A stretch of DNA of 64,000 bases from an uncultured Actinomycetes bacterium (GTDB taxonomy: Bacteria > Actinomycetota > Coriobacteriia > Anaerosomatales > PHET01): contig CAVPCY010000013.1 in NCBI GenBank assembly GCA_963702525.1, forward strand, positions 57,616 through 121,615, read 5' to 3'. The notes under the pieces were generated by a model. The model was given only the letters and a program-made list of their open reading frames with translations. It had not been told where the DNA came from and ran no database searches. The first letter of the stretch is position 1; every line of letters begins with the position of its first letter. A program made the translations under genes and the position numbers. Positions 10,656-50,697 of the stretch are shown piece by piece.

Positions 10656-12233
10656 GTGGTAAGGACCCGTCCAACACTCCCGGCAGGACACGGTGAGGTC
10701 GTCGAGCGGCCGGCGTTCGACGAGTGGGCCGCGCTCATGTCGGGGAACCAGTCGCACGCGTTGGGCTGGACGTTCGAGTTCGCGGGGCTCGGGGCGCAGG
10801 AGTTCAGGCGGCAGGCGCGCATGGAGCTGCTGGACGTGGCTGAGGGCTTCTCGGCGAAACTGGGCGTGGATCTGGGCACGCCGGCCCGCGGGCACGGACC
10901 GATGGTGGCTACCGGTCACCAACCCGATCTCTACCACCCGGGGGTGTGGGTCAAGGACTTCCTGCTCGAGCGGCTGGCCCGGGAGGTTGGCGCCGATGCC
11001 GTCGACATCGTGGTCGACTCCGACGGCTTCGACTCGGTGGCGGTCACCTCCCCGTGCATGCAGCCGGGGATCGGCCGGTGCCGTCAGTACCTTGCGGTGG
11101 GCGCGACGGACACAGCGTATGCATTCGCTGCCGTTCCCGACGATGAGGCTTTGGCCGAGTTCTGCGCCTCGGCAGATGAGATGCTCGCGACACTCCCCGC
11201 GCCAGCGGTGGCACGGCATTTCGCGGCGTTCTGCCGCGTGCTGCGTGGTTCAGCTCCCGATTCGGACAACCTGGCCGAACTGATCACCATCGCACGGCGG
11301 CGCTACGAGGCATCGGCTGGGACGAGCTACCTCGAAGCGCCGCTCACACGTGTCGCGGGCACTCGATCGTTCCGGCGGTTCGTGTGCGGCATCGTGCTGG
11401 ATGCGGCGGGCTTCGCCACAGCCTACAACGCGGAGCTCGACCGGTACCGCGCGATCTCCAAGACGCGAAACGTCGCTCAGCCGTTCCCCAACCTCGCGAT
11501 CGGCGAAGGCGGCATCGAGCTGCCGCTGTGGCACTTGGCTCGACACCGCCGGCACAGCGTGTGGGCGAAACCACGACCCGACGGTGGGACGACGGTGCTC
11601 GCCGGCGGCGAGCCGATAGCCGAGTTGCCTGCCGATCGCGAGCGCGCCTTGGCCGCGCTGGAAGCGTCGGACGCTCTCATCGCGCCGAAAGCGCTGGCGC
11701 TCACGTTGTTCGTGCGCCTGTTCTGCTGCGACCTGTTCATCCACGGTGTCGGCGGTGGCCGGTACGACCAGGTCACCGACGGCGTCATCAGACACTACTT
11801 CGGCGTCGAGCCGCCCGCGTTCGTGGTGGCGTCGATGACCATGTACCTCCCGCTCGGTGCGCACGCGGTCACCGATGATGAGGTAGGGGCGGCTCGGGAG
11901 CGCCTCAACCGGCTCGAGCACAACCCCGACGCGCTTCTCGGCGAGGTCGAGTTCGACTCAGATGCCGAGCGCGATCGAGCGGTGGGTCTTGCCGCGGAGA
12001 AGACACGGCTCGTCGAGCAGATCGCGAAGCCAGATGCCGACAAGAAGGCGCTTGGTACATGTATCCGCGAGGTGAACGCTGAGTTGGGGCGCGTACTGGA
12101 GCCGCTCAGGTCGGCATACGAGGCGGAGCTGGGTGCTCTCGAAGCAGCCAAGGCCACGGCGGAGATACTCACAGACCGCACGTATCCCTTCTGCTTCTGG
12201 GACCCCTCCGAGATCGCCGACAAGGTCTGGTAG
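10656..12233 (+). CDS. uncharacterised 525-aa protein, possibly BshC-like (COG4365-type) ligase
   Basis: The GTG lies 9 nt after the PIG-L stop, with an AGGGGG SD. High GC3 throughout. Motifs ATGHQPDLYHPGVWVK and LFIHGVGGGRYDQVTD loosely echo the BshC motifs GGQQxGLxxGPLYxxxK and GGPGExxYW. The C-terminal third is helix-rich. Confidence 0.3.
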   Translation: MVRTRPTLPAGHGEVVERPAFDEWAALMSGNQSHALGWTFEFAGLGAQEFRRQARMELLDVAEGFSAKLGVDLGTPARGHGPMVATGHQPDLYHPGVWVKDFLLERLAREVGADAVDIVVDSDGFDSVAVTSPCMQPGIGRCRQYLAVGATDTAYAFAAVPDDEALAEFCASADEMLATLPAPAVARHFAAFCRVLRGSAPDSDNLAELITIARRRYEASAGTSYLEAPLTRVAGTRSFRRFVCGIVLDAAGFATAYNAELDRYRAISKTRNVAQPFPNLAIGEGGIELPLWHLARHRRHSVWAKPRPDGGTTVLAGGEPIAELPADRERALAALEASDALIAPKALALTLFVRLFCCDLFIHGVGGGRYDQVTDGVIRHYFGVEPPAFVVASMTMYLPLGAHAVTDDEVGAARERLNRLEHNPDALLGEVEFDSDAERDRAVGLAAEKTRLVEQIAKPDADKKALGTCIREVNAELGRVLEPLRSAYEAELGALEAAKATAEILTDRTYPFCFWDPSEIADKVW

Positions 12234-12268
12234 GCGCGTCACGCGCGAACGTGCTCGGGTGTACATGA

Positions 12269-12297
12269 TTGCGGGGTCGCCACAGGCGCGCTATCAT
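12269..12297 (+). promoter_or_regulatory. promoter candidate for the small ferredoxin gene
   Basis: TTGCGG at 12269-12274, a 17-nt spacer, then TATCAT at 12292-12297. Confidence 0.35.
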
Positions 12298-12345
12298 CGT
12301 GCGACCCAAATCGAGCACGGCTGACCCGGGCGAAAGGAACTCACT

Positions 12346-13306: not shown

Positions 13307-14198
13307 CTGCCGGAACGATGCACTCGATGGCCCCCGCCAGCATCGATATCTCGTAGCGGCTCTCCAGAAGGACCTCACCGTCTATCTGCGCAGGGAGGCG
13401 CCTGTCGCAGTCGATGACGAGCGACGAATGGCGCGACATGTGGACCGGCTTCATCTTCGTGTGCTTGCCCGTGACGACGAAGGGGAGGCGCCAGAGTGCC
13501 TCGGGCAGCGAGAGTGGGTCGATCATGCAAACCTCGAACACGCCATCGTCAGGGCGGGCCTGGGGCGTGATGTAGAAACCGCCCCCATAGGTGGGCCCGT
13601 TCGTGACCGCTACGATCAACGTGTCGTGCTTCTCGGCAGCAGATCCGTCGAAAGAGATGTCGAGCGAGAACCCTTCGAGCTCGTTGAAGAGCACGTGCAG
13701 CAGCGCGGTGAGGTAGAGCCACAGTCCGGATCGGTGCTTGGTGACCTTGTACTCGACCGCCTTGGCGGTGACCTTGGCGTCCATGCCCGCCGCGAAGCTG
13801 TTGTTGAAGTAGACGCCGTTGCACAAGCCCACGTCGAAGCGCTTACGCACCCCGGTCGCCAGAGTCAGCGCGGCCTGTGCGAGGTCGTCGGGGACACCGA
13901 GAGTGCGACGGGTGTCGTTGCCCGAGCCGGTGGGCAGGAGGCCGAGGGCAGGACGGCGGGAGGCGTCGATGGCCATGAGTCCGTTGAGCACCTCGTGGAC
14001 GGTCCCGTCACCGCCGGCTGCGACCACGACGTCGTACTCGGTGGCGTCCCGTGCGAGAGCCACTCCATCGCCCATGGCCGAAGTCTGCACCAAGTCGTGC
14101 GGCAGGTTCACGAGCAGCTGCTCGATGATGGGTATGAGCTTGGCGGTTTCGCCATGCTTCGCTTCGGGGTTGGCGATGACCAGTGTCGAGCCGTGCAC
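13299..14198 (-). CDS. diacylglycerol kinase-family lipid kinase (YegS/DagK type)
   Basis: Motifs VVVAAGGDGTVHEVLNGL and LPTGSGND. The GTG at 14198 follows GGGGGAGG. ORF-track codons above 14198 run through the tRNA-Arg gene and are spurious. Confidence 0.85.
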   Translation of the reverse strand: MHGSTLVIANPEAKHGETAKLIPIIEQLLVNLPHDLVQTSAMGDGVALARDATEYDVVVAAGGDGTVHEVLNGLMAIDASRRPALGLLPTGSGNDTRRTLGVPDDLAQAALTLATGVRKRFDVGLCNGVYFNNSFAAGMDAKVTAKAVEYKVTKHRSGLWLYLTALLHVLFNELEGFSLDISFDGSAAEKHDTLIVAVTNGPTYGGGFYITPQARPDDGVFEVCMIDPLSLPEALWRLPFVVTGKHTKMKPVHMSRHSSLVIDCDRRLPAQIDGEVLLESRYEISMLAGAIECIVPAGG

Positions 14199-14311
14199 TG
14201 CTTCTGACCTCCCCCGGGAAAGACGCCGTAGAGCGTGGCAAGCATACCGCAGGCAGAGCCGTGTTGGTCGAGGTTGGCGGGTATGATACAGTGCGTTGCC
14301 GCGCGACGCGT

Positions 14312-37773: not shown

Positions 37774-38162
37774 ACTCGAGCAAGGAGTTCGCTCTGGTCG
37801 CCGCCGATGCCGCGAGCGACAGGAAGGCGGCCGACATAGTCGCCATCGAGGTGTCGGAGCTACTCGTTGTGACCGACTACTTCGTGATCTGCTCCGGTAA
37901 CACGGACATCCAGGTTCGTGCCATCGCCGACCAGGTCGAGGACCGGCTTCGTGAAGAGTGCGGGATCAAGCCGATCGGCCGAGAAGGCGTGGGTGAGGGC
38001 AAGTGGGTCCTGCTCGACTTCGGCGATCTGGTCGTCCACGTATTCCAGCCTGAGGAGAGGGCGTTCTACCGACTCGAGAACCTGTGGAGCGACGCGCCGA
38101 GACTGGAGCTGCCGGCGAGCACTGCCCCAGGTCAGTCCGCTCCGAGCGAAGACGCCGAGTAG
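37770..38162 (+). CDS. rsfS: ribosome silencing factor RsfS
   Basis: GTGA overlap. Motifs KAADIVAIEV...TDYFVICSGNTDIQVRAIAD...W.LLDFGDLVVHVF. The ORF-track start at 37440 is a spurious extension. Confidence 0.9.
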   Translation: MNSSKEFALVAADAASDRKAADIVAIEVSELLVVTDYFVICSGNTDIQVRAIADQVEDRLREECGIKPIGREGVGEGKWVLLDFGDLVVHVFQPEERAFYRLENLWSDAPRLELPASTAPGQSAPSEDAE

Positions 38163-38166
38163 GTCC

Positions 38167-39192
38167 GTGCACAGTCGCGCTTCTCGTTTCGGCGTGCCTG
38201 CAGCACTCGTGGGCGTTGCAGGCATCTGGGGATTCACCTTCGTCATCGTCGCCGATGCGATCTCCCGCTACCCCATGTTCGCCTTCCTGGCCTGGCGTTT
38301 TGCGGTCGCGTCGGTCTCGTTCGTGGTTCTGTTCCCTCGGGTGCTGCGAAAGCTCGACGCGCAGAACCTCAGGATGGGACTGCTGGCCGGCCTGCTGCTA
38401 TCCGCTGGTTACATCTTCCAGACATGGGGCCTAGCGCCGGATGTGGGCACAACTCCCGCTCGGGCCGCTTTCATCACGGGGCTCTACGTGATCATCGTGC
38501 CCCTCATGCAAGCGGTCTACCTGCGCAGACTACCGAGGAAAGCCACGCTCGCGGGTGCGGGAATGGCGCTGGCGGGGCTGTGGCTGCTGTCCAATGCCGG
38601 CCCCGACGGGAGCTGGTCGACCGGCGACGCCCTCGTGGCCATCTGCGCGGTCGCCTACTCACTGCACATGATCGCTTTGGGCTCCACGGACGAGCGCCAC
38701 GATACCGCTGCGCTCACGCTCATCCAATTGCTGACGGTCGCGGTCGTGTGTGGCGTCATCTCACTGCTGCGCGAGAACGCTCCGATGCCGGCGGACGGCT
38801 ATGTGTGGTTCGCCATCCTTGTGTGCGGCGTTCTCGCATCCGCCGTGGCGTTCGTCGTGCAGACGTGGGCCCAGCGGCGCATACCACCGGCCCGCGTCGC
38901 GCTCATCTTGGTCACTGAGCCGGCGTTCGGCGGTCTGTTCGGGTGGTGGACGGCGGGCGTGTGGCCGATTCGCGAGGTGATCGGGGCGGCGATGATGCTG
39001 GGCGGGATGATCACCAGTGAGGCTGTTGCGGCTCATGGCTCCGCAGGCCGAGGGGGTCACGTTCGAGCCGGCGATGGAGGGCATCCCGGCACCGGTCCTG
39101 GACGACGGTCACAAGCCGTCCGGGCTGTTCGAGGAGCAGTGAGCAGAAGGGGCGCAAAGGTGCCATGCAGCAGGGCCCGAGCGCGCTATTGA
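38167..39192 (+). CDS. EamA/DMT-family transporter (3' end doubtful, see findings)
   Basis: The GTG at 38167 lies 5 nt after the rsfS stop. About 10 TM segments in two EamA repeats. The Arg-rich tail after about 39015 has low GC3, while the +1 frame has high GC3 and stops at 39142. Confidence 0.75.
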   Translation: MHSRASRFGVPAALVGVAGIWGFTFVIVADAISRYPMFAFLAWRFAVASVSFVVLFPRVLRKLDAQNLRMGLLAGLLLSAGYIFQTWGLAPDVGTTPARAAFITGLYVIIVPLMQAVYLRRLPRKATLAGAGMALAGLWLLSNAGPDGSWSTGDALVAICAVAYSLHMIALGSTDERHDTAALTLIQLLTVAVVCGVISLLRENAPMPADGYVWFAILVCGVLASAVAFVVQTWAQRRIPPARVALILVTEPAFGGLFGWWTAGVWPIREVIGAAMMLGGMITSEAVAAHGSAGRGGHVRAGDGGHPGTGPGRRSQAVRAVRGAVSRRGAKVPCSRARARY

Positions 39193-39216
39193 CCGGCTTC
39201 TAGCCGCTGGTATACT
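39189..39216 (+). promoter_or_regulatory. promoter candidate for tRNA-Ala (TTGACC-16-TGGTATACT)
   Basis: -35 TTGACC at 39189-39194 and an extended -10 (TGG+TATACT) at 39208-39216, 33 nt upstream of the tRNA. Confidence 0.55.
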
Positions 39217-39249
39217 ACCGCTTGCCGCTTTGGGGCGGCACCCAGATGT

Positions 39250-39325
39250 GGGGCCTTAGCTCAGCTGGGAGAGCGCCTGGCTGGCAGCCAGGAGGTCAGG
39301 GGTTCGATCCCCCTAGGCTCCACCA
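39250..39325 (+). tRNA. tRNA-Ala (anticodon GGC)
   Basis: 76 nt: acceptor GGGGCCT/AGGCTCC with the G3:U70 Ala identity pair, anticodon stem CCTGG/CCAGG with loop CTGGCAG, T-arm AGGGGTTCGATCCCCT, encoded CCA. Confidence 0.93.
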
Positions 39326-39335
39326 ATCGAACCTC

Positions 39336-39365
39336 ACGCCCGTCGGAGTTCCGGCGGGCGTTCTT
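39336..39365 (+). terminator. terminator after tRNA-Ala
   Basis: An 11-bp stem (ACGCCCGTCGG / CCGGCGGGCGT, one G-U pair) with loop AGTT, then TCTTG. Confidence 0.6.
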
Positions 39366-39475
39366 GCGTCTGGCGCCGGTGTCGCCACACAACCGTTTCG
39401 CGCCCGTGCGCGCCCTCGGCTAGAATCACTCGCATCGGAATCTGTCGGCGAAAGACCCTTTGGAGGGCCTGCACA

Positions 39476-42014
39476 GTGAGTGAAGCCCGGTATCACCCGC
39501 GAGACATCGAGCCCAAGTGGCAGGCCGTGTGGGAGCGGGACGGCGCGTATCGGGCCACCGAAGACCCCGACAAGCCCAAGAAGTACGTGCTCGAGATGTT
39601 CCCGTACCCTTCGGGCGACATCCACATGGGGCACGTGCGCAACTACACCATCGGTGACGTGGTCGCCCGCCAAGCGGTCATGAGGGGCTTCTCGGTCCTC
39701 CACCCGATCGGCTGGGACGCGTTCGGTCTGCCTGCCGAGAATGCGGCGATCAAGAGCAACAGCCATCCCGCGAAGTGGACCTACGCGAACATCGAGACCC
39801 AGGCGGCATCCTTCAAGCGCATGGGCTTCTCGTACGACTGGGACCGCACCGTCAAGTCGTGCGATCCCGAGTACTACCGATGGGGCCAATGGATCTTCCT
39901 GAAGTTCTGGGAGAAGGGGCTCGTCGAGCGGAAGAGCTCGCCGGTCAACTGGTGTCCGGACTGCGCGACGGTGCTCGCCAACGAGCAGGTGCTCGGCGAT
40001 GGAGTGTGTTGGCGCTGCAAGAGCGTCGTCCAGAAGCGCGAGCTCGAGCAGTGGTACTTCAAGATCACCGAGTACGCCCAGGAGCTCTTGGACGACTTGG
40101 ACGACCTTCCCGGTTGGCCCGAGCGCGTCAAGACGATGCAGGCGAACTGGATCGGTCGAAGCGAGGGTGCAGAGGTCGACTTCGAGCTCTGCGACGCCGG
40201 CGGCATGCCGAGCGGGGATCGGATCACCGTGTTCACCACCCGGCCCGATACGCTGTTCGGATGCACGTTCTTCCTGCTCGCGCCGGAGCACCCCCGTGTG
40301 CGGGAGTTCGTTGAGGGCACCGAGTACGAAGCAGACGTGATGGCGGTGGTGCACGCCGCCGGCAGGGAGACCGCGGTAGAGCGGCAGCTCGGCGAGCGTG
40401 AGAAGAACGGGGCCTTCACCGGACGCCACGTGGTCAATCCCGTGAACGGCGAGAAGGTTCCGGTATGGGTGAGCGACTACGTCTTGATGGAGTACGGCAC
40501 GGGTGCGGTCATGGCGGTCCCCTCAGGCGACCAGCGCGACTTCGAGTTCGCGCGTAAGTACGGCCTGCCGATTCCGCCCGGTCGTCGTTGCCGATGACGA
40601 TCCGCTTCTCGGCGAGTTGTCGGACGCGCGCGACCGTGTGCGCGACGACGTGCCGTGGGCAGAGGCCTTCGCCGGTGGCGGGGTGATGGTGCAGTCCGGC
40701 GATTTCACGGGCTTGCGCGGCGGCAAGGACTCCGAGGGGATGCGGGCGGTCACCGAGTGGCTCGACGCGCGCGACATGGGCCGGTTCTCGATCAACTTCC
40801 GCCTGCGCGACTGGCTCATCAGCCGGCAGCGCTACTGGGGCAACCCGATACCCGCGGTCCACTGTGCTGTCTGCGGACTCGTGCCTGTGCCCGAGGACGA
40901 GCTGCCCGTGGTCCTGCCGATGGACATCGACATAACGAAGAGCGAGACTCTCGCCGACCATCCCGAGTTCTACGAGACCACGTGTCCGAAGTGCGGTGGG
41001 GATGCCAAGCGCGAGACAGACACGATGGACACCTTCACCTGCTCGAGCTGGTACTACCTGCGCTACTGCGACGCGCGCAACGACTCCGAGCCGTTTGCGC
41101 GCGACAAGGCCGACTACTGGATGCCGGTCGACCAGTACATAGGTGGCATCGAGCACGCCATCCTGCACCTCCTGTACTCGCGTTTCTTCACCAAGGTTCT
41201 GCGCGACTTGGGGCTGCTCGGCTTCGACGAGCCTTTCACCAACCTGCTGACCCAAGGCATGGTGAAGAAGGACGGCGAGACGATGTCCAAGTCGAAGGGA
41301 AACGTTGTCGCCCCCGAGGAGATCATCGAGCGCTTCGGCGCCGACACGCTGCGCGCCTACATCCTGTTCATGGCGCCGCCCGACAAGGACCTCGAGTGGA
41401 GCTACGAGGGCGTCGAGGGCATGCATCGCTGGCTGTCGCGCGTGTGGCGGTTCGTGACCGAGACGGCCGAAGAGGTGGCGTCCGGGTGCGGCGTCGCTGC
41501 ATCGGGTGATAGTGCAGCCAAGACGCTCCATCGCGAGATGCACCGCGTCACCGGCAAGGTGACCGACGACGTCGAGCGATTCCAGTTCAACACGGCGATT
41601 GCCGCGATGATGGAGCTCACGAACGCGGCTTATGACTACCGCAACGCCATTGCGTCGGGTTCGCGTGACCTTGCGTTGCTCAAGGAGGTCGCCGAGCGGC
41701 TCACGCTGCTGCTCGCGCCTTTCACTCCGCACATGGCCGAGGAGCTGTGGCGGGAGGTGCTCGGTGCTCCCGGGTCAGCGCACACCGCCCAATGGCCGGC
41801 TTTCGACGCCTCAGCCGCGGCGGCGGACGAGATCGAGCTCGCGGTGCAGGTCAACGGCAAAGTCCGAGGCAAGGTCGTGCTGGCTGCGGATGCCCCCGAG
41901 GATGCCGTGATCTCGGCTGCGCTCGCCGAGGTGGCGAACTGGGTCGAGGGCAAGGACGTGAAGAAGGTCGTGGTCGTTGCCGGCAAGCTCGTCAGCGTGG
42001 TCGTTGCCGGCTGA
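39476..42014 (+). pseudogene. leuS: leucine--tRNA ligase, reading frame broken by an apparent 1-nt insertion near 40577
   Basis: ORF 39476..40597 carries the N-terminal half (HMGHVRNY, ...[21 protein letters not shown]). ORF 40503..42014 continues in the +1 frame (PVVVADDDP...[18 protein letters not shown]...KMSKSKGN). Skipping one C of the CCC run at 40577-40579 joins them. Confidence 0.9.
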
Positions 42015-42121
42015 TGCAACGGTCAGTTCCGGGTAGGCTGGTGGTACGCGCCTGGTAACCAGCGTCGGGCGATGATGCTCCCGCGGGTCGAGTGAAGGCG
42101 ACCCGCATCACCGATATGACC

Positions 42122-42154
42122 GGCCCCCTCCGTCGCGTCGGCAGGGGGCCTTTT
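42122..42154 (+). terminator. intrinsic terminator after leuS
   Basis: Stem GGCCCCCT / AGGGGGCC followed by TTTT at 42151-42154. The comEA ATG follows 1 nt later. Confidence 0.65.
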
Positions 42155-42155
42155 C

Positions 42156-42879
42156 ATGTCCGAGTTGATAGAGCGGACACTGCGCGATCTCGGTCGACGT
42201 GCCGGTCTGCGGGACGTGCCGGCCGGTGTCGTGGGCGCAGTGGTCTGCGTTGCGATGGTGGCGGTTGTGTGGGCCGGGTGGCGCTGGTGGCCACGAGACG
42301 CCAGCGCGGGTGTCTCGGGCAGAGGCGAGGTCTTCTCAGCCGAGATCGCCGATGCACCGGCGGGAAGTGCGGGAGCCGACGCGTCGGCGCCGTCGTCCGG
42401 CGCGAGCACCGTCCCGGTACCGGCCACACTGTTCGTCCACGTCGCGGGGCACGTTCGGCGACCCGGTGTCTACGAACTGACCGTAGGATCGCGTGCTGTG
42501 GATGCGATTGAGGCAGCAGGGGGCGTTGTAGGGGACGCGGCACCGGATGCGCTCAACCTGGCCAGGGTCCTTGTCGACGGCGAGCAGGTGGTCGTTCCGT
42601 CCGCCGAGGAAGCTGCCGCTACGGTGGCGGGGGCGGGCGGAGGAGCGGGGCCACCGGGAGCCCCCGGTGCTCCGGGTAGCGTCGGTCGTGGTCGACATCA
42701 ACACAGCCGACGTGACGCAGCTCGATACGCTGCCCGGCGTCGGGCCGTCCACCGCAGCCAAGATCGTGGCCGAACGCGAGGCGAACGGACCGTTCACCGG
42801 AGTAGAGGATCTGGCGAGGGTCTCGGGCATCGGTCCCAAACGGATCGAGCAGCTGAAGGACCTCGTTCGTGTCCGTTAG
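42156..42879 (+). pseudogene. comEA: competence protein ComEA (TM + SLBB + helix-hairpin-helix), frame broken near 42684
   Basis: ORF 42156.. encodes the TM segment and SLBB domain (LFVHVAGHVRRPGVYEL). The HhH domain (VVVDINTADVTQLDTLPGVGPSTAAKIV...ISGIGPKRIEQL) is in the +1 frame and ends at 42879. Skipping one G at 42684 joins them. Confidence 0.85.
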
Positions 42880-45598
42880 CCGCCGCTGCCCGATGAGGCC
42901 CTCGATTCCGCCGCTGGCTTGGGTGGCCGCGGCTACGTGGGTCGGAGTGGCGTGCGCCGAGGCGCTCGTGTGGAACGGCGCTCCGAGCCCCCTGATAGGG
43001 CTGTCCGTGTCCGCCGCGGGCGGAGTGGGTGCCCTCTGGCTTCGGAAACGCGGGTGGATTGCGGCCGTCGCCGTGGGTCTGGCAGCGGGGATGGCGCTTG
43101 GCACGCTGTTCTGGAGCCACTTGGCCGCCCAGGCCCTGCAGCTCGAGGAGCTCAACGGCAGGGAGCTCGTAGCCGAGGTTGTGAGCGACGCGGCGAAGGG
43201 TGCCTACGCCGACCGTTCGAAGGTGCGGCTCGCGGGTGCGGCGGGCGCTCAGGTCGAGGCCGCGTGGTCGAGAATCGACGCGCCGCCGGCGGGTGCACTG
43301 GTCGCGGCGAGGCTGAGGTTCCGAGACGGGGCGCGTGACGAATGGGCGCGGAGGCGCCACCGCGCCGGGGTTGCGGGAACCGCCTCGGCGAAGACCGCAC
43401 GAGTCCGCGGCTGGTCTCGGAGTCTCCGCGGGGCTGTCGGGCCTTGGCGGGAGGGCTCGTGGTCGCGCGTGCGTGCCATACGCGGCGAGGGGAGTGCGCT
43501 TGTCGCGGGCGTGGTGCTCGGCCATCGAGAGGACCTCACGGGCACAGCGGCGGACAGCGACTTCCGCACGACCGGGCTTACGCATCTGGTCGCTGTGAGC
43601 GGCAGTCATCTTGTCGTGGTGGCTGCGATCATCGCGTGGGTGCTTGGCCGGCTCCGCATGCCACGGGTCGGTGTCGTGGCGGCGACCGTGGGTGTCGTAG
43701 GGCTCTACGTGGTTGCGAGCGGCGTACAGCCCTCGGCCGTACGCGCGTGGCTGATGGCGGCCTTCGCGGCCATTGCGATGACGACGGGCCGCAGGGTCGA
43801 CTCGGTCGCGGGCCTGTCCGCGGCGGTGTGCTTCGCGTTGGCCACGTATCCCCCGGTCGCCTTCGACATGGGCTTCCAGCTCTCAGTAGCGGCTGTTGCG
43901 GGCTTGATCATGTTCTCGCGACTGGTCGACGCGTGGCTGGCATCCGCGTTGTTCGGACCGCTCAGCGCACTCTCGGGGCCGCTTGCCCTCACGCTGACGG
44001 CTCAGGCCGCAACCACGCCGCTCGTCGCTGCAGCGTTCGGGTCGCTCTCGCTTGTTGCCCCGCTCTCAAACCTGTTGGTCGGACCGCTGGTCTCTGTCGT
44101 GCTCGTGCTCGGGCTGGTAGGTGTGGGCACGGGTGGCGCCTGGCCGGCCGGCTCACACGCGTCACTCGACGCTGCCTGCGCCACGGCGGCTGTCGCGCAA
44201 GCCATCGCCGGCCGGCTGGCGGGAGTACCGTACGCTTCCATACCGTGGAGTGGATCCGTGCTCGTCGCGTGTTCGGTCGTGCTGACAGGGGCTTGCGTCA
44301 TATGGGTCTTGTGGCCCACGCCCCGCGCGCTGTATGCGCGGCTCGGTGTTGCCGCAGGGCTGGCGCTTACGGCAGGCGTCGTCGCTGGTCCGCGCCCTCC
44401 GTCCGGGACGTCGATCGTCGTCATGGACGTGGGGCAGGGCGACGCGGTTCTTGTCCGGGACGGTTCGCACGCCATGCTTGTCGACACTGCCGCCGATCCG
44501 TCCGCCCTCCGGGAAGCGCTGCTGCGCAATGGCGTGAGGGCGCTCGAGAACGTCGTGATCACTCACCTGCACGATGACCACTACGGTGGCTCGCCCGCGC
44601 TTGAGGGCACGATCCGAGTAGGCAGGGTCACAGTCAGCCGGGGTGGCGCCTCGCAGCTGCCCGAGGCGATCTCGCGACTGCGTGCACCCATACACGAGGT
44701 GAGTGCGCCCGCGACCCTCACGTGCGGGCGCATCGCCCTTACGGTGGTATCACCGCTGGCCGAGCCGGCTGACTGCGCCTCCAATGAGGCGAGCATAGTC
44801 CTGCTCGTAAGGTCTGGAGGCTTCTCGGCGGTATTGACCGGCGATGCCGAGGCCGACGTCCTCGACCCCTTGGCGTCCGGCGGCGAGATGGGCGACCTCG
44901 ATGTGATCAAGGTAGGTCACCACGGGAGCAGGGATGCGGTAAGCCCCCGCACCCTCCAGAACCTCAGACCCGAGGTCGCCGTGATCAGCGTGGGTGCTCA
45001 CAACCGCTTCCGCCACCCGGCTCCCTCGACTGTCGAGATGTTGGAGGGTGCAGGGGTACGCGTTCTGAGGACCGACAGAGTCGGTGACGTGCGGATCGAG
45101 TTCGGCGAGGACTCTTGGCGCGTATCGACGTCATCCCGCTTAGCGGCGGCACGCATGTATGAGAGACTGGCAGAAGCGAGCGCACGTAGCGGCCTGAGGG
45201 CCTGTCTGGGGGTCAGTAGCGGTGTCATCACCCGATCTCAAGCCCATCTACCTGATCTTGAGCGAACAGGACTTCCTGCTTCGTCAGGCTCTCGATCGGT
45301 TGCGCGTGCGGGTTGGCGAGGTAGCGGATCTCGACTTCAACCTCGAGACCTTCGAAGGGGACTCCGCCTCGGTGGATGCGATCGTTGCGGCCTGCAATAC
45401 GCTGCCGTTCGCCTCAGATCACCGCCTCGTCATCGTCAACAGCGTGGACAAGCTCTCGAAGGACGCCGCAGAGACGCTGGTCGCCTACGCAGCGGATCCA
45501 TCACCCACCTGCATACTGGCGCTGGCCGCCCCCAAGATCGCGAAGAACACCCGGCTGTACAAGGCGGTGGACCGCTTGGGCGGTGTGCTCGAGCGTAA
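42869..45598 (+). CDS. comEC: DNA internalisation competence protein ComEC/Rec2 (3' end uncertain)
   Basis: Polytopic competence domain plus a metallo-beta-lactamase domain (VVMDVGQGDAVLV, THLHDDHYGG, KVGHHGS). The last ~150 codons overlap holA out of frame and are Arg-rich with poor GC3. Confidence 0.8.
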   Translation: MSVSRRCPMRPSIPPLAWVAAATWVGVACAEALVWNGAPSPLIGLSVSAAGGVGALWLRKRGWIAAVAVGLAAGMALGTLFWSHLAAQALQLEELNGRELVAEVVSDAAKGAYADRSKVRLAGAAGAQVEAAWSRIDAPPAGALVAARLRFRDGARDEWARRRHRAGVAGTASAKTARVRGWSRSLRGAVGPWREGSWSRVRAIRGEGSALVAGVVLGHREDLTGTAADSDFRTTGLTHLVAVSGSHLVVVAAIIAWVLGRLRMPRVGVVAATVGVVGLYVVASGVQPSAVRAWLMAAFAAIAMTTGRRVDSVAGLSAAVCFALATYPPVAFDMGFQLSVAAVAGLIMFSRLVDAWLASALFGPLSALSGPLALTLTAQAATTPLVAAAFGSLSLVAPLSNLLVGPLVSVVLVLGLVGVGTGGAWPAGSHASLDAACATAAVAQAIAGRLAGVPYASIPWSGSVLVACSVVLTGACVIWVLWPTPRALYARLGVAAGLALTAGVVAGPRPPSGTSIVVMDVGQGDAVLVRDGSHAMLVDTAADPSALREALLRNGVRALENVVITHLHDDHYGGSPALEGTIRVGRVTVSRGGASQLPEAISRLRAPIHEVSAPATLTCGRIALTVVSPLAEPADCASNEASIVLLVRSGGFSAVLTGDAEADVLDPLASGGEMGDLDVIKVGHHGSRDAVSPRTLQNLRPEVAVISVGAHNRFRHPAPSTVEMLEGAGVRVLRTDRVGDVRIEFGEDSWRVSTSSRLAAARMYERLAEASARSGLRACLGVSSGVITRSQAHLPDLERTGLPASSGSRSVARAGWRGSGSRLQPRDLRRGLRLGGCDRCGLQYAAVRLRSPPRHRQQRGQALEGRRRDAGRLRSGSITHLHTGAGRPQDREEHPAVQGGGPLGRCARA

Positions 45599-46187
45599 GG
45601 CCCCCCGAGGGGCCGAGTTCGTCCGAGGGGTCATCGGCCTGGCGTCGGACCGGAACAAGCGCATGTCGGCCGATGCGGCCCAGGCGTTGGTCTCGGCGAC
45701 CGGAGAGGACTTGCGACTCGTCTCCGTCGAACTCGACAAGCTCATCGCGTACGTAGACGAGGCCGAGGAGATCACGCGCGAGGACGTCGAGAAGGTCGTC
45801 GCCAACGCGGCGAAGGCCAAGAGCTGGGAGTTGGGGGAAGCACTCGCTGACCGGGACTGTCGCAGGGCGCTCGTGCTGGCAGCCAGTATCTTGCGCGAAG
45901 GGGAGTCGGTCTTCGCCCTGCACGCGACGGCGCTTCGTACGGTGCGCGAGCTGATGACCGCCCGGGCGCTGATCGATCGCGGCGAGACTTCAGCCGATGC
46001 GCTCGCCCGACGGCTGGGCAGGCAGGAGTGGCAGGTCAGGCGGCTGCCGCGTCAGGCGCGCGCCTTCGACTCGGCCGAGTTGGTCGATCTGCTTCGGGCC
46101 GCAGCCGCGGGGGAGGCCGAAATGAAGACGAGCCGGGATGCCCGGCTCGTCTTCGAACGCTGGATAGTCAGGGTGTGCGGCGCTTAG
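45222..46187 (+). CDS. holA: DNA polymerase III subunit delta
   Basis: Position after comEC. N-terminus [20 protein letters not shown]... and a C-terminal helical domain typical of HolA. Confidence 0.8.
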
Positions 46188-46447
46188 CCCACCGCGTTCG
46201 CGGCCTTCATGATGCCGGACTTGCGGTTGGCGGCCTGCTTCTTGTGTACCACGCCCTTGCTGGCGGCCTTGTCGAGCAGTACGGATGCTTCGAGCGCAGC
46301 CGCTTTCGCTGCGTCGGCATCGCCGGCCTCGATGGCGACGTGCACCTTCTTGATGGCGGTCTTCAGCTCAGACCTGACGGCCTTGTTACGCTGGTGCGCC
46401 TTCTCGTTTGTAAGGACGCGCTTCTTCTGGCTCTTGATGTTTGCCAC
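46184..46447 (-). CDS. rpsT: 30S ribosomal protein S20
   Basis: The GTG at 46447 follows an AAAGGG SD. Sequence [33 protein letters not shown]. Its stop overlaps the holA stop (cTTAGc). Confidence 0.92.
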
Positions 46448-46619
46448 AGTGGTCTTGCCCTTTCGATTCAGATGGTGCCCTCGACAGTGGGGTGTCGACG
46501 AACCTTGCGAGTCTAGCACACGCCACCGAGCGTCGCCAACAGCCTGGCAGAGGGTCGAACCGCCCGTCCGTGAGCGCGAACTTCCGCACGCTGCGCCGCC
46601 CTTGCTAGACTGTACCGCT

Positions 46620-48426
<1,807 letters not shown>

Positions 48427-48444
48427 CCGAGAGGCGTTGGACAA

Positions 48445-49449
48445 GTGCCCTCAGTCGATAAGGTCGCCGCTCTGCTCGCCGAGAACCCGGTGCTTCTCGG
48501 TCCCATGGCGGGAGTCACCGAGGCCCCGTTTCGCGGGATCTGCAAGCGCATGGGCGCCGGCCTGACCTGCACCGAGATGGTCAGTGCGGCAGGCCTGCAC
48601 TTCAACCCGGACTCGGCGGTCTCGAAGCGGCTGCTCACGTTCAGCCCGGAAGAGACGCCGTGCGCGGTGCAGATCTTCGGCTCGGATCCCGAAATCATGG
48701 CTCGGCAGGCCCGAGCCATCGTGGAGCGCTACGGCGATGACGTCGCGCTGATCGACATCAACATGGGATGCCCCGTCACGAAGGTGGTCGCCAAGGGCGA
48801 GGGAAGCGCCCTGATGCGCACTCCGAGACTGGCCGCGCAGATCGTGGCGGCCGTGGTGGCGGAGTGCCCGGTGCCGGTGACCGTGAAGTTCCGAAGAGGG
48901 TGGGACGACAAGAGCGCCAACGCGGTCGAGTTCGCGCGAGAGATGCAGGCCGCAGGCGCGTCGGCGCTTGCCGTCCACGGACGGACTCGGGATCAGTTCT
49001 ACCACGGTCAGGCCGACTGGACGGTCATCGCGCGGGTCAAGCAGGCGGTCGACGTTCCGGTGGTGGGAAGCGGCGACGTCCTGTCGGCTCGCAGTGTCGT
49101 GGCCATGATCGACCAGACCGGGGCCGACGGGGTGATGGTCGCCCGCGGTGCGCAAGGCTACCCCTGGATCTTCCGAGAAGCGCTCTCGTTGCTGCGTGAC
49201 GGAGTTGAGCTGCCCGGGCCGACGCCACTCGAGCGTATCGACATGGCTCGCGAGCATGCGAGGGCACTCGTCGAGTTCGCCGGCGAGCGGGGTGTGGTGC
49301 GCATGCGCAAGCACGTGGCCTGGTACCTCGCCGACATGCCCGGCGCCTCACACGCCCGCTCGCGCATCAATGCGTGCCATACTCACGCCGAGTTGGACGC
49401 GCTGCTTGCCGAGTACCGGGAGTTCGTGGAGGAGCGCCATGTTGTCTGA
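48445..49449 (+). CDS. dusB: tRNA-dihydrouridine synthase
   Basis: Motifs LGPMAGVTEAPFR, DINMGCP and VTVKFRRGWD. Confidence 0.88.
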   Translation: MPSVDKVAALLAENPVLLGPMAGVTEAPFRGICKRMGAGLTCTEMVSAAGLHFNPDSAVSKRLLTFSPEETPCAVQIFGSDPEIMARQARAIVERYGDDVALIDINMGCPVTKVVAKGEGSALMRTPRLAAQIVAAVVAECPVPVTVKFRRGWDDKSANAVEFAREMQAAGASALAVHGRTRDQFYHGQADWTVIARVKQAVDVPVVGSGDVLSARSVVAMIDQTGADGVMVARGAQGYPWIFREALSLLRDGVELPGPTPLERIDMAREHARALVEFAGERGVVRMRKHVAWYLADMPGASHARSRINACHTHAELDALLAEYREFVEERHVV

Positions 49450-49528
49450 GCGACCGCAGGAGTGCTCGGGAGTCGCCGAATCAGATCGCGCACGATGAGC
49501 GACGTCGCGAGACACGACAGCCGACCTC

Positions 49529-50697
49529 ATGGTTGCTCGACTTCCGTCGCACCTCTACGTCCACGTCCCCTTCTGTGCTTCGAAATGCGCGTACTGCGAC
49601 TTCGCGAGCGTGGCGCGAGCGGACGAGGCCACGGTGCGGATGGTCTTTCGCGCCATGCGCACGCAACTGCTTCAGTGGCAGCGAAGCGGCCTGGATGGTG
49701 TGCTGGAGTCCATCTACTTCGGCGGCGGTACGCCGTCACTCGTCGCTGGTGAAGTGGTCGACCTGCTCGGCTTCATCAAGGAGGAGTTCCTCGTGCATGC
49801 CGGCGCCGAGGTGACGGCGGAGGCCAACCCCGACAGCCTCGACCGCAGCACGGTCGCGATGCTCGCTGAAGCGGGCGTGACCCGGGTGAGCCTGGGCGTG
49901 CAGTCCTTCTCCGACCGCGAGCTTCGCGTGCTGGGCAGGGTGCACGATGCCGAGACGGCCGAGCGAGCCTGCAGCGCCGTGTCCGAGGCCGGGCTCGCGT
50001 TGTCGATCGACCTGATGTGCGCGATACCCGGGCAGTCGCGGGCATCGTGGTCCACGACACTCCAGCGGGCCGCCGATACGGGCGCGGAGCACGTGTCGGT
50101 GTATCCACTCACAGTCGAAGACGGCACCCCGATGCAGGTGGCCGTCGACGCTCGGCTGGTGGAGGCGGTGGATTCGGACGTCGCCGCCGAGCACCTCGTT
50201 CTCGCCGAAGCGGCCCTTGGGTACCACGGCTTTCAGTCGCTACGAGGTCGCGAACTACGCGCGTCGCCGCGAGGCTCGGGCGCGACACAACCTCGCCTAC
50301 TGGACAGGGCGCCCGTACATCGGGCTTGGGCCCCGGAGCGCACGGGATGGTCGATGGTGCGGCAGCACGCGAGTCGTGTCTGTTCGGCGATATCGGAGAA
50401 GACGTCGGACGGCTGCGGTATGCGGGCGCCTCCGACATCTCGGATTGGCTCGTGGGCAAGGGGGACACGCTCGAGCTGATGACGCGTGCCGAGGCGGCGC
50501 GCGAGGACGCGATGTTGGGCATGCGACTTGTCGACGGGATCGACGACGAACTCGCACGACGTGCCGGCGTGGTCGGCGTGCTCGAATCCCTGGCCGAGGA
50601 CGGGTTGGTCAGCTACGAAGGATCCAGGTGGTCGGCGACACAGCGCGGATGGCTGCTGGGCAACGAGGTCTTCGGGCGCATCTGGTCGGGCGAGTGA
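49529..50697 (+). pseudogene. hemW: radical SAM heme chaperone HemW (HemN-like), two frame breaks near 50231 and 50334
   Basis: Frame 1 carries LYVHVPFCASKCAYCDF...LGYHGF. Frame 2 carries FSRYEVANYARRREARARHNLAYWTGRPYIGLGP. Frame 3 carries GAHGMVDG... and ends at 50697. Each junction is at a homopolymer (TTT at 50231-50233, CCCC at 50331-50334). Confidence 0.88.

Follow-up and report, generated by a model that had tools for sequence, protein, structure and literature searches.

The window analysed here is the whole stretch of 64,000 nucleotides at C13:57616-121615 (contig CAVPCY010000013.1) in the genome of an uncultured Actinomycetes bacterium (Coriobacteriia, Anaerosomatales, PHET01). The genome comprises 2.33 Mb in 29 contigs with 66% G+C, and is rated 82.2% complete and 5.2% contaminated. 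Around 39.0-50.4 kb, the window holds the tail of an EamA-family transporter gene (eamA-like), leuS, comEA, comEC, holA, lepA and hemW. The coding sequence of this stretch is interrupted by six frame breaks, located in the eamA-like tail, leuS, comEA, lepA and twice in hemW, and all of them are +1. The breaks and their origin are the subject of this report.

Six +1 frame breaks in the window

The six sites were assigned by nucleotide alignment with G004, a sister metagenome-assembled genome (MAG) of the same genus (about 10 contigs, 60% complete). The proteins of G001, a well-assembled genome of the same genus (17 contigs, 97% complete, leuS not in several frames), served as the referee for which partner is broken. 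The G004 alignment spans all 64 kb of the window, with 93.3% nucleotide identity and 105 gaps. At each site the window has one specific extra base relative to G004 (39033 T, 40577 C, 42686 T, 47637 T, 50237 T and 50326 T). When the G001 orthologues were searched by tblastn, the frame switched at 39033/39035, 40578, about 42650, 47637, 50234 and 50333, and G001 was intact at all six sites. In a Pfam scan of the open reading frames (ORFs) in 38-52 kb, leuS, comEA, lepA and hemW each had their two halves in different + frames. With the extra bases skipped, the proteins could be aligned with their G001 orthologues as far as the ends of the latter. The breaks had been proposed in a first-pass annotation made from the sequence letters, and tblastn and the G004 alignment agree on all six. 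The proposed positions were exact for leuS and lepA and within about 2 nucleotides for comEA, and those for the eamA-like gene and both hemW sites were 4 to 19 nucleotides off. The comparison with orthologous loci in close relatives, which the same annotation had suggested as a check, finds neither G004 nor G001 with the extra base at any of the six sites.

The eamA-like gene (ORF 37918-39192, + strand) carries an extra T at 39033 that G004 lacks. The G001 orthologue matches 37909-39033 in frame 1 and 39035-39133 in frame 2 as two high-scoring segment pairs (HSPs), and the true tail runs in the +1 frame to a stop at 39140-39142. The read-through protein has 407 amino acids and is aligned to the end of the orthologue.

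In leuS (+ strand), the extra base is the C at 40577, in the CCC of 40577-40579, where G004 has one C fewer. It splits the gene into 39476-40597, which holds the editing domain together with the leading part of the class I tRNA-synthetase core, and 40503-42014, which holds the remaining core and the anticodon-binding domain (Pfam). The tblastn junction lies at 40578 with a difference of +1. Read through, LeuS has 845 amino acids and is 83.7% identical to the G001 protein end to end. The usual length among 120 listed LeuS homologues, mostly single ORFs, is also about 845 amino acids, and all 120 match the whole C-terminal piece. The LeuS homologues in the protein collection are named as Coriobacteriia MAGs.

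The extra base in comEA (+ strand) is the T at 42686 according to the G004 alignment, which has a gap there, with an ambiguity of about 2 nucleotides in its placement. It separates the SLBB domain in ORF 42156-42896 from the helix-hairpin-helix domain HHH_3 in ORF 42547-42879 (Pfam), and the read-through ComEA of 240 amino acids is aligned to the end of the G001 orthologue. In lepA (+ strand), an extra T at 47637, in the TTT of 47637-47639, where G004 has one T fewer, splits the gene into 46209-47705, with GTP_EFTU and domain 2, and 47539-48426, with EFG_C and LepA_C (Pfam). The tblastn junction is at 47637 with a difference of +1. The read-through LepA is 90.6% identical to that of G001 over 607 amino acids, to the last residue.

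The hemW gene (+ strand) contains two extra bases, and both stand opposite gaps in G004. At the first, the T at 50237, which is between G and C and outside any run, the frame of hemW leaves that of ORF 49529-50479, which bears Radical_SAM, for a middle frame. At the second, the T at 50326 in a TT, the frame shifts to that of ORF 50017-50697, which bears HemN_C (Pfam). The G001 protein gives HSPs at 49541-50236 in frame 2 and at 50232-50333 in frame 3. With both extra bases skipped, a 388-residue ORF is obtained. The hemW ORF of G001 (C14:14735-15763), which has 343 amino acids from stop to stop, aligns with the read-through HemW only to residue 314.

A further window-specific extra base, a G at 49511 opposite a gap in G004, was found in the intergenic spacer between dus and hemW, with no strand assigned. 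The orthologue alignments do not extend across this position and the spacer lies outside reading-frame judgement; this G is a possible further insertion of that type. Separately, a small conserved gene was observed between holA and lepA at window 46190-46495 (- strand), which encodes 102 amino acids with 81% identity to G001. Given this gene, the lepA ORF from 46209 begins far upstream of the true lepA start, which should be near 46.5-46.6 kb.

Coding signal downstream of the breaks

Downstream of each break, the window differs from G004 at third codon positions as read in the shifted frame, nearly always synonymously, and the same differences read in the old frame are amino-acid changes. Two synonymous differences and no amino-acid-changing one were counted in the eamA-like tail, 11 and none in comEA, 20 and none in lepA, and four and none in the middle segment of hemW. 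For leuS, 67 differences were synonymous and 19 were non-synonymous. This pattern in the aligned sequences indicates purifying selection on either side of each break. Since the differences are nearly all synonymous in the shifted frame, the genes with the six breaks are functional in this lineage.

Frame breaks of the same kind across the genome

The proteins of 1944 G001 ORFs were compared with the whole genome by tblastn, giving 1.20 Mb of orthologous alignment. In total, 418 frame switches were detected on 24 of the 29 contigs, including 261 clean +1 and 42 clean -1 events; each of the five event-free contigs has less than 12 kb aligned. Frame switches affected 304 of the 1263 orthologues (24%), whatever the function of the gene, and the most-broken genes include a phosphoglucosamine-mutase-like gene, an EPSP-synthase-family gene and those of LeuA, PriA and DinB. 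The scan finds about half to two thirds of the breaks that truly exist, as with 3 to 4 of the six in this window, and includes some false events from G001-specific differences; in its clean +1 class, about 89% of the events were validated by the gap-stripping test described below.

Counted in 10-kb bins, the clean +1 events number 2.09 per 10 kb of alignment on average and at most 8 in one bin; their variance-to-mean ratio is 1.96. Three of them were detected in the bin holding the six-break stretch, and many other bins have 4 to 8. A similar picture came from the G004 alignment (415 kb aligned), where the private extra bases of this genome amount to 0.59 per kb of orthologue-covered coding sequence and the 39.0-50.4 kb stretch has 6 extra bases in 11.4 kb, which is 0.53 per kb. 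The window is among the cleanest parts of its contig, and in the regions C13:180-210 kb and 280-400 kb the number of private extra bases per 10 kb is 8 to 46. In a stretch starting 42 kb downstream, 13 events refereed by G001 were detected, with 55 private single-base gaps in its G004-aligned part. These results show that the 11-kb stretch has the ordinary error density of the genome, and it is conspicuous only by the unusually clean rest of the window.

When the gap columns relative to G004 were stripped from the 415 kb of alignment, 42 of 47 clean +1 events vanished in this genome and 147 of 149 in G004. As gap stripping clears nearly all of the clean +1 events, the insertions are private to each assembly. 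G004 has the same insertion-biased profile (169 clean +1 versus 32 clean -1), and its density of 1.69 private extra bases per kb of coding sequence (G004 C1 and C2) is about three times that of this genome, at different sites. A flank-phase likelihood test, decisive for a minority of the gaps, gave ratios of insertions to deletions of 30:5 here and 137:17 in G004. A referee test on HSP spans left most gaps unclear because the errors of the two genomes are too close together, and gap stripping was used instead.

Base context of the insertions

The first-pass annotation had placed each break in a mononucleotide run and had taken the homopolymer context as one sign of systematic insertion errors. 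At the six sites, only three of the inserted bases have an identical base beside them (40577 in CCC, 47637 in TTT and 50326 in TT), which is the chance level. For the genome-wide test only uniquely placeable insertions were counted, 34 in this genome and 126 in G004. In 8 of the 34 (24%) and in 31 of the 126, the inserted base is the same as one next to it, compared with 0.49-0.50 for random insertion of the same composition into the same coding regions (p = 0.003 and 1e-8, respectively). The insertions therefore avoid the extension of homopolymers, which is rarer than expected by chance, and the homopolymer link was rejected. All four bases are inserted, and no motif was evident around the 34 and 126 well-placed insertions. 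These results show an error process that is genome-wide and patchy, produces about 6 insertions per deletion and is not tied to homopolymers.

A source in which a polymorphic site would enter the consensus with both of its alleles was also considered. Of the insertions that match neither adjacent base, 63% in G004 consist of a synonymous alternative of a neighbour, versus 45% expected (p = 4e-4); in this genome the share is 38% versus 46% expected, which is not significant. The excess in G004 hints at mixed-strain polymorphisms written twice into its consensus. It is a candidate source, supported in G004 but not in this genome, and was not adopted.

Origin of the extra bases

The absence of the extra bases from the 93%-identical G004 and the restoration of full-length proteins by skipping them support the reading of the breaks as assembly errors. 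Judged by this comparison of sequences, the six breaks are very probably single-base consensus insertion errors in the MAG, and leuS, lepA, comEA, hemW and the eamA-like gene would be intact in the organism. The first-pass annotation had likewise preferred insertion errors to pseudogenisation or programmed frameshifting, and this preference is borne out by insertions that are private to the genome, by the apparent purifying selection on both sides of the breaks and by the quarter of conserved genes affected.

Some points weigh against this explanation. The status of the extra bases as errors is inferred from comparison and not from sequencing reads. An independent assembly of the same species was not found, the best LeuS match among 5.8 billion proteins being 84% identical, and the exact Dus protein has no record in the protein collection. 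The errors also have a profile unlike that of the best-known long-read artefact, deletions or insertions in homopolymers. About 41 in-frame stops (22 TGA, 16 TAG and 3 TAA) were also found genome-wide in well-aligned context. Their counterparts in the G001 orthologue are R, C, W, Y, K, S and Q, and some of the stops form pairs separated by a few codons. Substitution errors, or compensating indels close to each other, are their probable cause. A larger set of 375 in-frame stops inside HSPs was set aside, as most of them lie in poorly aligned leaders of stop-to-stop query ORFs. A selenocysteine tRNA (tRNA-SeC) was observed among the 50 transfer RNAs (tRNAs) predicted by ARAGORN, so that selenocysteine TGA codons may exist, which are not to be counted as stops.

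The first-pass annotation had attributed the breaks to a local artefact, in which one poorly polished or low-coverage stretch of 11 kb with homopolymer errors lies in an otherwise accurate assembly. The confinement of the coding breaks of the window to 39.0-50.4 kb and the patchy error density, with a variance-to-mean ratio of about 2, agree with a local problem. However, comparable breaks, which the annotation itself had taken as the sign of a global quality issue if found across the genome, occur genome-wide at equal or higher density. With 24 of the 29 contigs affected, 2.1 clean +1 events per 10 kb against 3 detected in the stretch, many bins with 4 to 8 events, a several-fold higher density of extra bases elsewhere on the same contig and the homopolymer link rejected, a local artefact is very unlikely.

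Genuine pseudogenisation, in which the frameshifts would be real mutations of a massively decaying genome, could account for breaks that stand in the deposited sequence, for a completeness of only 82% and for the existence of some in-frame stops. It is highly improbable for several reasons. It would leave a quarter of the conserved genes dead, among them leuS, lepA, priA and genes of the murA/aroA type, and the shifted frame downstream of the breaks bears the marks of strong purifying selection. The breaks of G004, which is 93% identical, are entirely different ones. The ratio of insertions to deletions of about 6:1, and clean frameshifts that far outnumber well-supported nonsense codons, are unlike mutational decay. 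Decay of the Mycobacterium leprae type resembles the present case in that many genes are interrupted by frameshifts, but it spares essential genes, leaves relaxed selection and deletions, and is shared by relatives, none of which is seen here.

It could also be supposed that the extra bases are truly in the DNA and that full-length LeuS, LepA and the other proteins are made by a widespread, context-independent +1 recoding or, in a weaker form, that the patches are real hyper-variable segments of the population. The comparative data favour neither widespread recoding nor hyper-variable segments, and this supposition is extremely unlikely. Programmed +1 recoding, by ribosomal frameshifting or four-base decoding, would fit the uniform +1 direction and the conserved downstream frames, but its probability is practically negligible, as no site is conserved even in the 93%-identical G004, the 34 and 126 well-placed insertion contexts share no motif, none of the 50 tRNAs predicted by ARAGORN was flagged as unassigned or with an anticodon of other than three bases, and the 120 listed LeuS homologues that match the whole C-terminal piece are mostly single ORFs of about 845 amino acids. 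The +1 frameshifting of prfB (RF2) likewise has one extra base between two conserved frames of an essential gene; its motif is kept across species, whereas the sites here are private to one assembly, free of a motif and number in the hundreds.

Consensus insertion errors, the explanation preferred here, have a known counterpart in the indel-induced false pseudogenes of long-read or low-coverage assemblies and MAGs (PMC8103633; PMC11017572). These share with the present genome single-base splits of conserved genes throughout the genome, a lowered marker completeness (82% here), differences between near-identical genomes and an intact flanking coding signal. Indel errors in long-read MAGs hold completeness near 85%, and frameshift correction raises it to about 94-95% (PMC8103633). 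Many pseudogenes in databases are assembly artefacts, with counts that depend on platform, assembler and coverage (PMC11017572). Unlike the usual false pseudogenes, in which homopolymers and nanopore deletions are prominent, the errors here are insertions by about 6:1, with neighbour copying at 24% versus 49% expected. The pattern is one of single-base insertions that look random, occur at about 0.05% per base and are unevenly spread along the contigs, in MAGs of few contigs with depressed completeness. It may stem from an under-polished or low-coverage long-read consensus, or from error-prone long-read bridges in a hybrid assembly. The leuS gene is also in several frames in other MAGs of about 10 contigs and 59-77% completeness, namely G003 and G004 of the same genus and G010 of the same family.

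If the extra bases are consensus errors, the frame breaks are not a real feature and hold no new biology. About a quarter of the conserved genes of this genome, and a larger share in G004, would be split or carry scrambled stretches from stray inserted bases. Gene-level readings of the genome, including fusions, truncations, 'missing' domains, odd C-terminal tails and pseudogene counts, would need caution. The insertion-biased and non-homopolymer profile is unusual, and a correction limited to homopolymers would miss most of the errors.

Other features of the window

Outside the 39.0-50.4 kb stretch, no well-supported coding break was found in the 64 kb by the G004 alignment and the G001 orthologues, as the first-pass annotation had noted for the rest of the window. 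Five apparent switches at window 3.4-13.4 kb have no window-specific gap relative to G004, and the one at 13324 shows the same HSP pattern in G004. They are due to differences in G001 or to overlapping stop-to-stop query ORFs and are not errors of the window. Window-specific gaps at 14204/14221, 19289/19314 and 22734 are all intergenic or at gene starts. In a BshC-like gene at window 10656-12322, the G001 orthologue, a 621-residue stop-to-stop ORF, switches frame near 11724 and 12289. G004 equals the window at 11724, which points to a difference in G001 or a real lineage difference. Two extra bases are present in G004 near 12254-12259, and the C-terminal end of the BshC-like protein needs care.

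The comEC ORF (42869-45598, + strand, with Pfam Competence and Lactamase_B domains) runs in its frame about 376 nucleotides into holA (45222-46187). The first-pass annotation had counted the missing stop of comEC among the signs of the error run. The stop is indeed lacking in the sequence, but the same frame has no stop until inside holA in G001 (C14:10300-10900) and G004 (C1:69940-70700) too, with an overlap of about 376 nucleotides in the window and about 220 in G001, and no window-specific gap relative to G004 lies between 44961 and 45895. The missing stop, being common to G001 and G004, is thus outside the error run. The comEC tail and the start of holA lie at window 44700-45600, and the out-of-frame tail is Arg-rich and not conserved. 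The frame could be a conserved and genuine long overlap, reflect an unrecognised earlier end of comEC, or be a stop-poor alternative frame of G+C-rich DNA. In G001, which is not flawless, comEC changes frame near C14:9930 (within C14:9700-10000).

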